Assembly (NCBI GenBank): GCA_964429715.1
Contig: CAYSCV010000002.1
Location: 1-41,246, forward strand
From: an uncultured Methanosarcinales archaeon
GTDB lineage: Archaea; Nanobdellota; Nanobdellia; Woesearchaeales; GW2011-AR9
Length of the DNA: 41,246 bases
Direction of reading: 5' to 3'
Shown here: piece by piece, positions 6,179 through 32,374 of the stretch
Layout: each line of letters begins with the position of its first letter
Numbering within the stretch: position 1 is the first letter of the stretch
Translations under genes and position numbers: made by a program
Notes under the pieces: model-generated
The model's input: the letters and a program-made list of their open reading frames with translations, nothing else
What the model was told of the DNA's origin: nothing
Database searches by the model: none

Positions 6179-6802
6179 TTAATCCATCACTACTATTTCT
6201 TTAAATGAATAGATAATCCTTTCTTTCTGTAAAAACTTCCCTAATTCTTCTTCTCTTTCTTTAGGAATTAACACTACATTTGACCCATATCTTCTCCCTT
6301 TAAGTTCCCCCAACAATCCTTTATCTTTATACCCTTTTTCATTTCGGCCAAATAATGTCCGTGTCAATCGCAAATATTTTTTCTTATCTTTAGGAAATTC
6401 CCATGTAAATAAATCAAATCTTTCTCCTGTTTGCAGTTCTGCTTTTTTGGAAAACAATAAGATCCCTTCGCTGGCAATACTGCTCTGCAGCTGCCACTCC
6501 TGTAATCTACCCGCTTGCACAGAAAGAGGATAATGAAACCCCAATAATTTCCATTTTTTATAATCTGTAGATTGATAAAAGCGCGCAAATGCTGCTCGCA
6601 CATTTCGTTCTACTGTATCGGCCCGATCACAGTCAATAAAAATATCTATATCACTTTCTTTTTGCAGTTGTCCTCGTACCGCCGAACCATACAAAAATAT
6701 TTTTGAAATAAACTTGTTGAGTGTCCCATCTAAGAACAAGAAACTTAACGCATTCTGTGCATACGCAATCGCGTGCCATGTTTGCTTATTCAATCTCCTC
6801 AC
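6179..6802 (-). CDS. Minimal nucleotidyltransferase (MNT/Pol-beta superfamily) with ~85-aa C-terminal extension
   Basis: 207 aa. G-S-x(n)-D-x-D core LYGSAVRGQLQKESDIDIFID. The C-terminal part (FDLFTWEFPKDKKKYL...NVVLIPKEREEELGKFL) is shared with the second NTase at 8668..9258. Overlaps the upstream gene by 17 nt. Confidence 0.75.
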   Translation of the reverse strand: MRRLNKQTWHAIAYAQNALSFLFLDGTLNKFISKIFLYGSAVRGQLQKESDIDIFIDCDRADTVERNVRAAFARFYQSTDYKKWKLLGFHYPLSVQAGRLQEWQLQSSIASEGILLFSKKAELQTGERFDLFTWEFPKDKKKYLRLTRTLFGRNEKGYKDKGLLGELKGRRYGSNVVLIPKEREEELGKFLQKERIIYSFKEIVVMD

Positions 6803-7217
6803 CTAATTGTTGTAGTTGTTCTTTAATCAACTGATGCAGTTTTTGAAATGCTTTTAACACTATTTCCGCGGCACTCTTGCTCGGTTTGCCATAAATCAAT
6901 TTATTTCTATGCTCTTCAATAAGATACATCGACCTGAAGATATCTTCTTTCATCGCAAATTCCACTCCTAACATTCGCTCGGCTAAAGGCATAATTTTCT
7001 GTTCCGGCTTTGGTGTTTTAAACCACTCATGCTTCACCATCGTTCCGATAGAAATTTTATTGAGCGTGTGCAGATACAGCTCCAGTAAATCTATCGAACA
7101 AGCCGAAGTATGTAATCCAATAGTGGCTGCTCGTTCTTCAAGCCCAACCGCAATAGCTGATTCTATCCCTTGGATATGTTCTTGAATATGTAATTTATGT
7201 ACTTCTTTTGAGGTCAT
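6786..7217 (-). CDS. Small all-helical HEPN-like protein, partner of the NTase (144 aa from ATG at 7217)
   Basis: Helical heptad-like sequence. Near the C-terminus, EEHRNKLIYG sits where HEPN proteins carry R-x4-6-H, but has Y in place of H. Translationally overlapped with the NTase gene. The track ORF N-terminal 22 aa are translated operator repeats and were trimmed. Confidence 0.45.
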   Translation of the reverse strand: MTSKEVHKLHIQEHIQGIESAIAVGLEERAATIGLHTSACSIDLLELYLHTLNKISIGTMVKHEWFKTPKPEQKIMPLAERMLGVEFAMKEDIFRSMYLIEEHRNKLIYGKPSKSAAEIVLKAFQKLHQLIKEQLQQLGEEIE

Positions 7218-7218
7218 A

Positions 7219-7269
7219 TTGGAATAAAAGTTCCAATTCTTTATAAATTTTTTGGAATAAAAGTTCCTA
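7219..7269. promoter_or_regulatory. Two copies of the palindromic site TTGGAA-N6-TTCC(A/T)A bracketing a TATA-like box
   Basis: TTGGAATAAAAGTTCC occurs at 7219-7234 and 7252-7267 (16/16 identical, 33-nt period). TTATAAATTT (7241-7250) lies between them, about 24 nt from the cassette ATG (7217). Confidence 0.5.
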
Positions 7270-7341
7270 ATTTTAAACCACACTATAAGCTGTTCCTAAA
7301 ACAACATAAAGTTAATAAAGAAGCACTTCCCTATTCCTTCC

Positions 7342-8271
7342 ATGGAAAACGTCATTATCCTTGGAACTGGCATCGCGGGACTTACCGCTGCAATTTACAC
7401 CGCAAGAGCCAACCTCTCTCCTCTGCTAATCTCCGGTCCCGAAGATGGCGGCCAATTAACCTTAACCACGGACGTTGAAAACTTCCCTGGCTTCCCTCAG
7501 GGCATCCAAGGCCCCGAATTAATCAATATCACAAAATCCCAAGCCGAACGCTTCGGCGCTCGCTTCAAAATCGACATAGCTTCAAAATTCACCTCACTTA
7601 AAAACGGCAACGGCTTCGAACTCGAATTGATCAGCGGCGAAAAAATTAAAACCAAATCCCTCATTATCTCAACCGGCGCATCTGCACGCTGGTTAGGTAT
7701 TCCTTCGGAACAAAAGTATAAAGGAAGAGGTGTCACAACGTGCGCAACCTGCGACGGCGCATTCTTCAAAAACAAAGAAGTTGCTGTCATCGGTGGCGGC
7801 GATTCCGCTATGGAAGAATCAACCTTCTTAACTAAATTCGCCAGTAAAGTAACTATCATCCATCGCCAAGACACATTTCGCGCCTCAAAGATCATGCAAG
7901 ATAAATTCTTCAAAAATCCAAAATGTTCTGTTGTTTGGAATAAAGAAGTGAATGAAATCCTCGGTGACGGCAAAAAAGTCACCGGCGTCAAATTAAAAGA
8001 TACAACAACAGGGAAAATTACGGAATTCAAATGCGACGGCGTCTTTCTTGCCATTGGCCACATCCCTAACACCTCAATCTTCAAAAGCCAAGTAGACATG
8101 GATGCGTTAGGCTACCTCAAAACCGACCGTTTCACCAAAACTAATATTCCTGGCGTATTTGCCGCAGGCGATGTTCAGGATACACGATATCGCCAAGCCA
8201 TCACCGCCGCCGGTTCAGGCTGCCAAGCCGCCATGGAAGTCGAAAAATATTTGGCCGAACATCACGAATGA
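7342..8271 (+). CDS. trxB: Thioredoxin reductase
   Basis: 309 aa. FAD motif ILGTGIAGLTAA, redox-active CATCDG, NADPH motif VIGGGDSAMEE, C-terminal GVFAAGDV. Confidence 0.92.
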   Translation: MENVIILGTGIAGLTAAIYTARANLSPLLISGPEDGGQLTLTTDVENFPGFPQGIQGPELINITKSQAERFGARFKIDIASKFTSLKNGNGFELELISGEKIKTKSLIISTGASARWLGIPSEQKYKGRGVTTCATCDGAFFKNKEVAVIGGGDSAMEESTFLTKFASKVTIIHRQDTFRASKIMQDKFFKNPKCSVVWNKEVNEILGDGKKVTGVKLKDTTTGKITEFKCDGVFLAIGHIPNTSIFKSQVDMDALGYLKTDRFTKTNIPGVFAAGDVQDTRYRQAITAAGSGCQAAMEVEKYLAEHHE

Positions 8272-8313
8272 ATAAAGATATTCTTTTCTCTTTTTTATAA
8301 CCAAAAAACCATT

Positions 8314-8370
8314 TGTTAGCACATCTAACAGAAAAGTTTAAATAGTTCTTCATTGTTACCTCAACTAACA
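8314..8370. promoter_or_regulatory. Two copies of the palindromic site TGTTA(G/C)-N5-CTAACA bracketing a TTTAAATA TATA box
   Basis: TGTTAGcacatCTAACA at 8314-8330 and TGTTACctcaaCTAACA at 8354-8370. The second ends on the A of the start codon. TTTAAATA at 8337-8344 is about 26 nt upstream of the ATG, consistent with a leaderless mRNA. Confidence 0.45.
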
Positions 8371-8699
8371 TGATCACTATCGCCCAAATACTAGTCTTCA
8401 AAAAGTCAGCAGATACATTATATTCCTCTGGCGATTACACCTCTGCCACAATCCTTTATTTTAAAACATTATTTGCCCTCCAAGATTTTGTTCTGTTAGA
8501 AAAAATTGGTGAATCCCCCAAAGATCATACCTCTCGTTTTCGCAGTTTAGAAAAGAATTTCCCCGACTTATTCAACGAATTAGATTTAGAATTTTCTACT
8601 TATAGGGATACGTATTCTAAAATTATTGATAAAGAGACATGCATACGCATTAAGAGGCTTGTTGACTATGATCTTACAACCTATAAAATTAAAGCATGA
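8370..8699 (+). CDS. Small all-helical HEPN-like protein, partner of the second NTase
   Basis: 109 aa. HEPN-like opening (ADTLYSSGDYTSATILYFKTLFAL) and a C-terminal YRDTYSK at the position of the R-x4-6-H motif, without His. Overlaps the downstream NTase gene by 32 nt. Confidence 0.45.
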   Translation: MITIAQILVFKKSADTLYSSGDYTSATILYFKTLFALQDFVLLEKIGESPKDHTSRFRSLEKNFPDLFNELDLEFSTYRDTYSKIIDKETCIRIKRLVDYDLTTYKIKA

Positions 8700-9258
8700 G
8701 CTAAATAAAATTGTACAGAAGTATCCTGAACTTCTTGATATCTTAGTCTTTGGCTCACTTGTTCGTGGCAAACAACACCCTTCCGATATTGACATATTAC
8801 TCCTGTTTAAAGAAAAAGTAGATAAGAATATAGAATACCTTGTTAGAAAAACACTTGAAAAACATGCAAAGAACATTTCCCTTATTTCTAAAACAGAACA
8901 AACGGTCTTCGATTCAGCGTTTGATGCTCGGGAGAGTATGCTCTTTGAAGCCAAAAGCCTGCTTACTGGAGAAAATATAGCTAAACAATATGGTTTTTCC
9001 TCATTTGGTATGTTCAAATATCAGTTCAAACAATGGAGCAAACTCCAAAAAACAAAATTTTATTATGCCCTCAACGGTCGTGGCAAGACCGGCATCGCCG
9101 ATCAGTATAAAAGCATCAAACTCTCCGATTCCGTCATACTCGTACCATTAGAACACATCGAAGAATTTCGCAGTTTTCTTGAAACCTGGAAGATTGACTA
9201 TAAATATATCCCTTTGATTATACCTTCTCGATTAGGAAAGAAGAGCATTTTAGAATAG
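8668..9258 (+). CDS. Minimal nucleotidyltransferase with C-terminal extension (paralog of 6179..6802)
   Basis: 196 aa from MILQPIK. Core VFGSLVRGKQHPSDIDILLLF. C-terminal module FGMFKYQFKQWSKL...SVILVPLEHIEEFRSFL aligns with the other NTase. Confidence 0.7.
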   Translation: MILQPIKLKHELNKIVQKYPELLDILVFGSLVRGKQHPSDIDILLLFKEKVDKNIEYLVRKTLEKHAKNISLISKTEQTVFDSAFDARESMLFEAKSLLTGENIAKQYGFSSFGMFKYQFKQWSKLQKTKFYYALNGRGKTGIADQYKSIKLSDSVILVPLEHIEEFRSFLETWKIDYKYIPLIIPSRLGKKSILE

Positions 9259-9650
9259 AGAACTTTCATTTTTACAAACCAAAAATTTGTAAACCAAAAC
9301 TACGAAAAGTGATAAAGTTGATTGTGCTGCAAATAAAAGGGTACTTGCACAGAAAAATTGGGGGGCAATCAAAGGAAGCCAACAAGGGTATAAAAAATGT
9401 ATTGCATCTTGTACTGAGGGCGAAGAAATGATTACATGCTCGTTAAATGATGATGGAAAGCAAGAGTTGAGTTCCTGGAAGTGTGATCTAAATGTTGGTG
9501 GGTGGAACTTCATAACAGATGTTTCTGCATGTAAATCAGGTATGAGTTGTAAAGCGCCAGAAAGTGGTGTTGCGCTCTGCCAATAATTTTTTTCTTTTCT
9601 TTTTTTCCTTCCCAAAACCTTCTTAAACCCTTCTCGTAACCCCTAACATA

Positions 9651-32234: not shown

Positions 32235-32374
32235 ATCACTCAGTATATAAAGAACCTTTAAAAACTTTGTTTAGTATTACAAAATAGTGAATCAGTCTTA
32301 TTGGAACCTCTTCATTGAAATACACCCATTCCACTAGCCAAAACGTATATAATCCTCATAACTATACTAGCTTC

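Follow-up and report, generated by a model that had tools for sequence, protein, structure and literature searches.

Two pairs of overlapping HEPN-like and nucleotidyltransferase genes with proposed cassette-specific palindromic operators in a Woesearchaeota-type archaeon

The window analyzed here, a 41,246-nt stretch of archaeal contig CAYSCV010000002.1 (assembly GCA_964429715.1), contains two gene cassettes that lie on either side of trxB. Each consists of a gene for a small helical protein that resembles HEPN proteins in fold, followed by an overlapping gene for a nucleotidyltransferase (NTase) that has an extra C-terminal domain (CTD), and each is preceded by a pair of palindromes, proposed to be operators, around a TATA box. 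All coordinates and strands refer to the window, in which cassette 1 is on the minus strand and cassette 2 on the plus strand. An earlier sequence-only reading of the window had described the four open reading frames (ORFs) and their overlaps of 17 and 32 nt, and ORF calling recovered all of them at the same positions. The features that the analysis draws on are listed below (pI, isoelectric point).

6179..6802, minus strand: NTase gene of cassette 1 (207 aa, GTG start), with a 17-nt overlap (6786-6802) with the stop of the HEPN-like gene
6182..6445, minus strand: CTD of the cassette 1 NTase (~88 aa, pI 9.6), proposed operator-binding domain
6786..7217, minus strand: HEPN-like gene of cassette 1 (143 aa, from ORF calling)
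7219..7236, minus strand: proximal operator of cassette 1, TTGGAA-TAAAAG-TTCCAA (TTGGAATAAAAGTTCCAA), 2 nt upstream of the ATG
7240..7247, minus strand: TATA-box-like element of cassette 1, TTTATAAA, ~27 nt from the start codon
7252..7270, minus strand: distal operator of cassette 1, TTGGAATAAAAGTTCCTAA, the second copy of the palindrome
7342-8271, plus strand: trxB, between cassettes 1 and 2
8314..8330, plus strand: distal operator of cassette 2, TGTTAG-CACAT-CTAACA (TGTTAGCACATCTAACA)
8337..8344, plus strand: TATA box of cassette 2, TTTAAATA
8354..8370, plus strand: proximal operator of cassette 2, TGTTAC-CTCAA-CTAACA (TGTTACCTCAACTAACA), the last base of which is the A of the ATG
8370..8699, plus strand: HEPN-like gene of cassette 2 (109 aa, from ORF calling)
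8668..9258, plus strand: NTase gene of cassette 2 (196 aa), with a 32-nt overlap with the HEPN-like gene
8980..9258, plus strand: CTD of the cassette 2 NTase (~92 aa, pI 9.7), proposed operator-binding domain

Cassette 1 and trxB have a 124-nt divergent intergenic region in common. A longer version of the cassette 1 HEPN-like gene, with a GTG start and extending to 7283, lacks conservation, and its additional part is merely a translation of the operator repeats.

The pair of genes is conserved as a unit in other genomes, as the sequence-only reading had supposed. The neighborhood survey was based on a genome scan for genes of the cassette 2 type (type 2), in which each species was represented by a single genome, and on a metagenome scan for the cassette 1 type (type 1). 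In all loci with enough downstream DNA (77/77 and 69/69), the helical gene was followed by an NTase gene, so that the HEPN-first order was found in 146 of 146. The overlap between the two genes was also conserved, with a length of 4 to 29 nt in type 1 and mostly 20 to 47 nt in type 2, and the NTase was in the +1 frame relative to its partner in 141 of the 146 loci. This conserved out-of-frame overlap indicates translational coupling. On account of the +1 frame, a programmed frameshift that would yield a HEPN-NTase fusion was also considered; no slippery site was evident and the NTase start codons are conserved, so that coupling is the simpler explanation. The identities of the two partners co-varied across loci (Spearman rho, 0.78 and 0.85), and ratios of nonsynonymous to synonymous substitution rates (dN/dS) were 0.05 to 0.13, with synonymous sites saturated. 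Such strong purifying selection implies that the cassettes are far more than chance ORFs.

In order to obtain insight into the fold of the small proteins, AlphaFold2 models built on 120-sequence alignments were compared to the PDB with Foldseek. Homologues numbered 141 for the helical protein of cassette 1 and 277, at 70 to 91% identity, for that of cassette 2. Both models were all-helical, in agreement with the sequence-only reading: the cassette 1 protein (mean predicted local distance difference test [pLDDT] score, 95.3; predicted TM score [pTM], 0.9) has helices at residues 2-24, 30-51, 78-83, 90-109, and 114-137, and the cassette 2 protein (pLDDT, 97.1; pTM, 0.9) has helices at residues 4-20, 23-46, 53-63, 65-80, and 88-104. 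The best match of both models was 2hsb, the structure of the A. fulgidus HEPN protein AF0298, which typifies the HEPN-T clade, with TM scores of 0.60 (cassette 1) and 0.76 (cassette 2), each at a probability of 1.0. The next matches across both models were 2q00, 1wol, 1ufb, 4nqf, sacsin (3o10), a HEPN toxin (7ae6), and AbiV (9bj7); the lists were headed by 2hsb, 1wol, and 7ae6 for cassette 1 and by 2hsb, 2q00, 3c18, 4nqf, and 1ufb for cassette 2. With HEPN proteins in the top ranks for both models, the earlier description of the small proteins as HEPN-like holds at the level of fold. The Foldseek E-values (0.04 and 0.15) were weak, which is common for helical bundles of small size, and independent support was therefore sought in the topology of the conserved motifs.

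The motifs to which the sequence-only reading had called attention, RNKLIY in cassette 1 and RDTYSK in cassette 2, are present and conserved, with the His expected at R+5 replaced by Tyr and Lys, respectively. In cassette 1, R104-N-K-L-I-Y109-G110 is at the end of helix 90-109, with R104, Y109, and G110 present in every one of 120 homologues. In cassette 2, R79-D-T-Y82-S83 is at the end of helix 65-80; conservation is complete at Y78, D80, T81, Y82, and S83 and at least 90% at R79. A second group of nearly invariant residues (≥90 to 95%) was found in the insert between helices 2 and 3, namely, K62-H63 in cassette 1 (insert 52-89) and, where the insert helix (53-63) of cassette 2 begins, K51-D52-H53. 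The partial sequence of AF0298 (...STAYYAMFHAAKAMLLGYGRDSKTHRG...LSRAFDLREESDYG...) contains SKTH, at the place that corresponds to the insert His, and R-E-E-S-D-Y-G, and AF0298 has [ST][ST]A at the start of helix 2, K-x-H, and R-x4-Y-G in common with cassette 1.

AF0298-like HEPN-T proteins have been described as lacking the His of the Rx4-6H motif and as retaining the Arg, with a conserved His in the helix-2/helix-3 insert as an alternative (Anantharaman et al. 2013, PMC3710099). Such an alternative His is associated with AbiV as well. Class II HEPN/MNT pairs (PF05168/PF01909), in which MNT is a minimal nucleotidyltransferase, likewise do not have the RX4HXY motif and have a conserved Tyr, beside an MNT with a GSX10DXD motif (Yao et al. 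2020, PMC7641770). Both helical proteins show this pattern, so that the "missing His" of the cassettes is the known class II state. The sequence-only reading had taken the replaced His as the mark of a module distinct from the described systems, and this part of it did not survive: the state was already known as HEPN-T or class II (PMC3710099, PMC7641770), and a HEPN protein with an alternative His, which that reading had named beforehand as an outcome that would tell against it, is what K62-H63 and K51-D52-H53 in the helix-2/helix-3 insert point to.

It might be argued that the small proteins are generic four-helix bundles, chaperone-like or adaptor partners whose likeness to HEPN is convergent. 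Consistent with this possibility, sequence searches linked the small proteins to none of the HEPN families. Neither helical protein matched Pfam (PF05168, DUF86/PF01934) or NCBIfam at an E-value of ≤1, and nothing significant was found in PADLOC, in PHROGs, or, with phmmer and hmmsearch run from single sequences as well as from profiles, in the PDB. The 120-sequence alignments did not give a significant hhalign match to the AF0298 fragment or to the canonical HEPN protein of locus L170, one of the loci compared. At the sequence level, the helical proteins are too divergent for membership in PF05168. Furthermore, BLASTP and hhalign detected no similarity between the two helical proteins, which have only fold, best structural match, and motif topology in common; Foldseek E-values were above 0.01; and MIT, TPR, and designed proteins appeared lower in the lists. 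However, it seems very unlikely that the likeness is convergent. The two models independently have mostly HEPN proteins in their top ranks, and the best match, 2hsb, is the same; the motifs are at AF0298-like HEPN-T topological positions, with R-x4-Y-G identical in cassette 1 and AF0298; and an obligate link to an NTase of the MNT type is the context by which HEPN is defined.

The core motifs of the NTases read from the sequence were confirmed as GS-X10-DID in cassette 1 (G39-S-X10-D51-I-D53) and GS-X9-DID in cassette 2, and both proteins scored above the Pfam gathering thresholds for PF18765 and PF01909 (38.4 and 32.1 bits over residues 29-121 in cassette 1; 40.7 and 33.8 bits over residues 11-76 in cassette 2). 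These matches to Polbeta (PF18765) and NTP_transf_2 (PF01909) are confined to the N-terminal ~100 to 120 residues, and the match to MntA_antitoxin of NCBIfam is weak and covers the NTase core only. The two NTases are 26% identical over their full length (E-value, 1e-10), with reciprocal hidden Markov model matches of ~1e-13; homologues of the cassette 2 NTase numbered 128. The earlier designation of the two cassettes as paralogous is thus appropriate for the NTases; for the helical proteins, between which sequence similarity is not detectable, it is based on fold and context.

Both NTases do carry an additional C-terminal domain, as had been noted before, and the two CTDs (~90 residues) are homologous (hhalign, 97.7%; E-value, 2e-12). 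The CTD is basic (median pI, ~9.7), and that of cassette 2 has the conserved motif K-x-[KR]-F-Y-Y-A-L-x-G-R (alignments A5 and A6). Searches of Pfam (E-value, ≤10), NCBIfam, and PHROGs with the CTD gave chance matches only, as did the profiles of A5 and A6 against PDB sequences. A Cas2/PaaX_M-like ferredoxin fold, suggested by the sequence pattern of the CTD, was also evaluated, and hhalign of A6 against E. coli PaaX and Cas2 gave a probability of 0.1% in a comparison of low power with single-sequence targets. Other MNTs of these archaea have an N-terminal winged helix-turn-helix (wHTH) domain in place of the CTD. At locus L170 (3088-4175), a wHTH-fused MNT (195 aa) and a 167-aa HEPN-T-like protein are encoded in the canonical order with a 4-nt overlap; the best PDB sequence match of this HEPN-T-like protein is AF0298, and the same metagenome contig also has a gene of the CTD family.

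In each cassette, two copies of a palindrome flank an archaeal TATA box, and the proximal copy is at the start codon. The distance of ~27 nt between the TATA-box-like element and the start codon of cassette 1 implies a leaderless or near-leaderless mRNA. The TATA box at 8337..8344 indicates that cassette 2, which is downstream of trxB, has a promoter of its own. Enrichment of the operators was evaluated in 81 upstream windows of 98 nt for each type, compared to the rest of the same loci. The type 1 pattern, GG[AT]A-N6-T[AT]CC, had 145 matches upstream versus 23 in 528 kb elsewhere, a 420-fold-higher density, and the type 2 pattern, GTTA-N7-TAAC, had 97 matches upstream versus 35 in 743 kb elsewhere, a 259-fold-higher density. 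There were no cross-family matches of the patterns between type 1 and type 2. Relative to the ATG, type 1 operators were positioned at -75, -50, and -20 and type 2 operators at -55 and -15; TATA-like motifs were seen at -30 in 62 of 81 type 1 upstream regions and were concentrated at -35 in type 2 (89 overlapping matches in 81 upstream regions). In distant members of both types, the half-sites are altered yet still palindromic (GTTGGTATAACCAAC in type 2; GGTACTTTTCTACC and GGTATAAAATATACC in type 1). The half-sites thus drift without loss of the palindrome, which means that the operator co-evolves with its cassette, and such co-evolution is a signature of autoregulation by a putative dimeric DNA binder encoded within the cassette. 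A third match to GTTA-N7-TAAC in the window, at 32602, is inside a 703-aa ORF (32315-34426) and is probably due to chance.

The distribution of the CTD beyond the cassettes provided insight into which protein element might recognize the operators. A CTD profile search of 1.84 billion representative proteins yielded 396 clusters. Among the best 150 of these, 78 had an N-terminal extension of at least 85 aa (71 with an NTase motif, and one a NucS_C-NTase-CTD fusion), 35 were short stand-alone proteins, 19 were tandem CTD-CTD proteins without an NTase, 16 had a short N-terminal extension (35 to 84 aa) before the CTD, and 2 had a C-terminal extension after it. A full-length NTase-CTD relative was found in Thermococcus indicus (match to the N2 profile, E-value of 4e-48). 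Its gene (locus L169, CP040846.1, 3899-4609) is inside a type I restriction-modification operon, between hsdS and hsdR, with no small HEPN gene upstream, and its promoter has the same operator-TATA-operator layout as the cassettes (GTTAATACATTAAC ... TGTTAACCCATTAACATG). The ATG that abuts the palindrome in this promoter is 49 nt upstream of the called start and out of frame with it.

Palindromes of the form GTTA(A)-N4-5-(T)TAAC around a TATA box were found at six of eight CTD genes that are not accompanied by a HEPN gene, five of them tandem CTD-CTD genes (L170, L172, L174, L175, and L176) and the sixth the Thermococcus NTase-CTD gene. GTTAA-N5-TTAAC occurs at only 10 sites in 1.28 Mb of compared DNA, and, by our own tally, 8 of these are in the promoters of these HEPN-less CTD genes. 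The CTD is the best candidate for the operator binder, because it is the only protein element that cassette 2 and the HEPN-less CTD genes have in common, and it probably binds the palindromic operators of its own promoter. In comparison with the other MNTs of these archaea, the CTD would then fill the role of their N-terminal wHTH. Automatic classing of half-sites in order to identify specificity-determining CTD residues was too noisy and was confounded by phylogeny.

Among the HEPN-less relatives, the tandem CTD-CTD genes (L170 5001-6360, L172 719-2000, and L175 and L176 1501-2857), which encode proteins of 160 to 260 aa without an NTase or HEPN domain, have TGTTAA-N5-TTAACA palindromes in their promoters. 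They overlap a gene for a conserved downstream protein with a coiled coil, a transmembrane segment, and a beta-rich region (~285 aa where the gene is complete), and the CTD-CTD gene of L170 is inside a cluster of secreted or surface-type genes. The tandem CTD-CTD proteins have the appearance of autoregulated transcription factors that serve a surface-structure operon. The NucS_C fusion, encoded at L173 (362-1456), is a 364-aa protein with a NucS_C-type (PD-(D/E)xK-like) nuclease, an NTase, and a CTD; the gene adjoins a fragment of a PIN-domain gene, and no GTTA-type palindrome was found upstream of it.

Helical genes of the cassette 2 type were found in 84 genomes, all from DPANN archaea of the Woesearchaeota/Nanoarchaeota type and including the complete genome GW2011_AR20, and the metagenome scan returned 179 loci of the cassette 1 type. 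Most neighbors are housekeeping genes, such as those for RNase P p30, ABCE1, RNase Z, the proteasome, and diphthine synthase. Beyond the three clusters of cassette proteins, the largest cluster of neighbors had 8 members among ~165 loci. Thus, the cassettes have no fixed neighbors, and the module moves intact among neighborhoods that are not related to each other. Several cassettes are side by side in some genomes: two apparently identical type 2 cassettes in tandem in L058 (2788-4820), a convergent pair in L082 (6001-8098), a type-2-like cassette directly upstream of a type 1 cassette in L133 (4051-6042), and two type 1 cassettes in L154 (4218-6936). These arrangements point to local duplication and clustering of modules. 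The two types are not normally adjacent in other loci, and the proximity of the two cassettes in the window, to which the sequence-only reading had attached importance, is therefore not a general feature.

The position of trxB between the cassettes, with the short divergent intergenic region that it has in common with cassette 1, might suggest a functional link of the cassettes to trxB, such as redox-linked regulation of thioredoxin reductase. However, no TrxB homologue was found within 5 to 6 kb in ~160 homologous loci, and clustering revealed no recurrent neighbor. A contig of another assembly carries homologues of both cassettes, whose helical proteins have 70% and 76% identity to those of the window, with cassette 2 located after the genes for prefoldin and ftsY and no trxB within 6 kb of it. 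The flanking of trxB, which the earlier reading had pointed out, is therefore incidental, and the neighborhood survey excludes a trxB-linked role for practical purposes; its probability is close to nil.

Considered together, these results make it probable that the cassettes are both self-contained modules of two genes that are autoregulated and belong to the class II (HEPN-T type) HEPN/MNT kind, relatives of type VII toxin-antitoxin (TA) systems that are inherited vertically in Woesearchaeota-type DPANN archaea. In the proposed mechanism, transcription would start at a leaderless-type promoter flanked by the two cassette-specific palindromic operators. The first gene would give an AF0298-like HEPN protein that may bind RNA and possibly acts as an RNase via the Arg located where helix 3 ends, together with the alternative His of the insert. 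The second gene, translationally coupled to the first via the conserved overlap, would give a minimal NTase with a basic CTD that could bind the operators as a dimer and repress the operon. The NTase is also expected to bind its HEPN partner and, by analogy with MntA and HepT, would most likely nucleotidylate the invariant Tyr (Y109 in cassette 1 and Y82 in cassette 2). This modification may keep the HEPN protein, with its presumed RNA targeting or toxicity, inactive, as MntA does to HepT.

Several points weigh against this interpretation. The Foldseek E-values are weak, and neither the Pfam families of HEPN proteins nor the AF0298 fragment was matched at the sequence level. The putative pairing of the alternative His with the Arg is based on topological position. 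The fold of the CTD has no counterpart among PDB sequences, and a GTTA-type palindrome was not seen at two of the eight HEPN-less CTD genes. The toxin-first order is atypical, in that the MNT is "almost always" 5' of HEPN according to the HEPN/MNT literature. The distribution is not like that of a TA system, with a helical partner that is 45 to 91% identical across at least 84 species and has housekeeping neighbors. IMG/VR viral contigs contained no relatives of either family, which also speaks against a viral origin. Finally, toxicity, AMPylation, and DNA binding are properties that we infer.

Many of the same observations are consistent with the main rival explanation, in which the cassettes encode a domesticated, nontoxic two-subunit NTase. 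The HEPN-like protein would then be a noncatalytic substrate-binding or regulatory subunit, comparable to the C-terminal HEPN-like domain of kanamycin nucleotidyltransferase or GlnE; the complex would modify RNA, protein, or a small molecule as a housekeeping function; and the operators would simply set expression. Vertical, lineage-wide conservation among housekeeping neighbors is in accordance with this explanation, as are the low dN/dS values, the higher conservation of the helical partner than of the NTase (in 136 of 137 loci), and the lack of relatives in viral contigs. The HEPN-first order is contrary to the logic that the antitoxin is made first. There is also precedent: domestication has been proposed for HEPN domains without the catalytic motif (Anantharaman et al.), and a DPANN-specific MNT-HEPN cluster with "unusual conservation" and a "house-keeping context" has been described (Makarova et al. 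2019, PMC6393860). Against it, the helical proteins retain a high density of invariant polar residues (R, K-x-H, and Tyr) at the alternative active-site positions of HEPN-T. Multiple or tandem cassettes in some genomes (L058, L082, L133, and L154), movement of the module as a unit between unrelated neighborhoods, a close NTase-CTD relative within the Thermococcus type I restriction-modification operon, and tight operator autoregulation typical of TA modules also argue against domestication. It therefore seems rather unlikely that the cassettes are domesticated NTases, although this explanation and that of a TA-like module are not separable computationally.

It is possible, and we put this forward tentatively, that the CTD represents a new archaeal family of sequence-specific DNA-binding domains, which occurs fused to MNTs, in tandem, or alone with subfamily-specific co-evolving operators, and that the cassettes are vertically inherited nucleotidylation switches rather than addiction modules. 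In that case, a single protein would repress the operon and, as an enzyme, would also control how active its RNA-targeting HEPN partner is; such a circuit would be a minimal regulatory one that senses ATP and has been kept in genome-reduced DPANN archaea. The CTD may be a new kind of DNA-binding domain, which as a tandem dyad would regulate operons for surface proteins. The link between operator and CTD predicts binding of the CTD to TGTTAG-N5-CTAACA or TTGGAA-N6-TTCCAA. Whether class II HEPN/MNT pairs are TA systems at all is a question that these families could help to address. The Woesearchaeota families offer an unusually clean handle on it because their members are small and strongly conserved and have orthologues in many species, with invariant candidate active-site residues (R, K-x-H, and Y) and precisely predicted cis-elements. 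The findings extend the earlier remark that DPANN archaea retain MNT-HEPN as conserved genes in a housekeeping context (PMC6393860) and suggest a conflict system that was domesticated in organisms with very few regulators.

Other features of the window were recorded. An archaeal RNase P RNA (RF00373; 28249-28615, minus strand; 107.7 bits) confirms that the window is archaeal, and its source is an archaeon of the Woesearchaeota/Nanoarchaeota type; the homologues of the cassette proteins come from metagenome-assembled genomes of these groups. No tRNA genes were found across the 41-kb window. The GC skew is -0.25 overall and about -0.65 at third codon positions (on the basis of the plus strand) in genes of both orientations, which indicates that this very strong strand asymmetry is not linked to transcription; among 74 related loci of more than 8 kb, 11 also had an absolute GC skew above 0.2. 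Between cassette 2 and a downstream methyltransferase gene, ~390 nt (9259-9650) are without a convincing ORF or an Rfam match; this region contains a Cys-rich ORF of 52 aa (9428-9586, plus strand) and a probably spurious 121-aa ORF on the minus strand.

Of the known systems, class II HEPN/MNT pairs (AF0298, PDB 2hsb, UPF0332; Makarova 2009, Anantharaman 2013, Yao 2020) are the closest to the cassettes. Class II pairs predominate in archaea and are among the most abundant archaeal gene pairs, and no member has been characterized biochemically (PMC7641770). Both consist of a small protein of HEPN fold and an MNT with a GSX9-10DXD motif; the Arg is kept, the His is lost, a conserved Tyr is beside it, and K-x-H is in the insert. 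Both are archaeal, and AF0298 is the best match of both cassette models. However, the cassettes are too divergent for PF05168, have the HEPN gene first and a conserved out-of-frame overlap of 8 to 47 nt, and encode MNTs with an extra domain of ~90 aa, which canonical MNTs do not have. They are conserved vertically in a DPANN lineage rather than being patchy, thermophile biased, or mobile, and cassette-specific operators have not been described for class II.

Type VII HepT/MntA systems belong to class I, with a DUF86 HEPN protein that has the RX4HXY motif (Shewanella SO_3166/SO_3165; Aphanizomenon HEPN/MNT, 7ae6 and 5yep). They also have an MNT beside a HEPN protein and a conserved Tyr in the loop after helix 3, to which MntA adds AMP, and their structures are among the Foldseek matches of the cassette helical models. 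The HEPN toxin of type VII systems is an RNase that MNT-dependent oligo-AMPylation of the Tyr neutralizes, and the cassettes have a candidate acceptor Tyr and the catalytic motif of the NTase. In contrast, the cassettes do not have RX4HXY, with Tyr or Lys at the position of the His, and do not match DUF86; the antitoxin-type gene is second, and the NTase is about twice as long owing to the CTD. The DPANN cluster cls.004259 (NEQ050) is similar in its combination of MNT and HEPN, its restriction to DPANN archaea, its unusual conservation, and its housekeeping neighbors. According to its description, on which this comparison is based, it is a single fused protein, whereas the cassettes are two overlapping genes with HEPN first.

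In organization, the cassettes also resemble toxin-first type II TA systems (higBA, mqsRA, and hicAB), in which the toxin-type gene is first, two palindromic operators overlap the core promoter, and the second protein combines a neutralizing part with a DNA-binding part, which in the cassettes is putative. The protein families are unrelated, neutralization in the cassettes would be enzymatic, their promoter is of the archaeal TATA/leaderless kind, and the CTD is of no matched fold. The components of the cassettes and the missing His are already known. As far as the literature searched shows, what is new for HEPN/MNT is the reversed, overlapping gene order, the CTD, the co-evolving operators, and the orthologous persistence of the pairs in a DPANN lineage.

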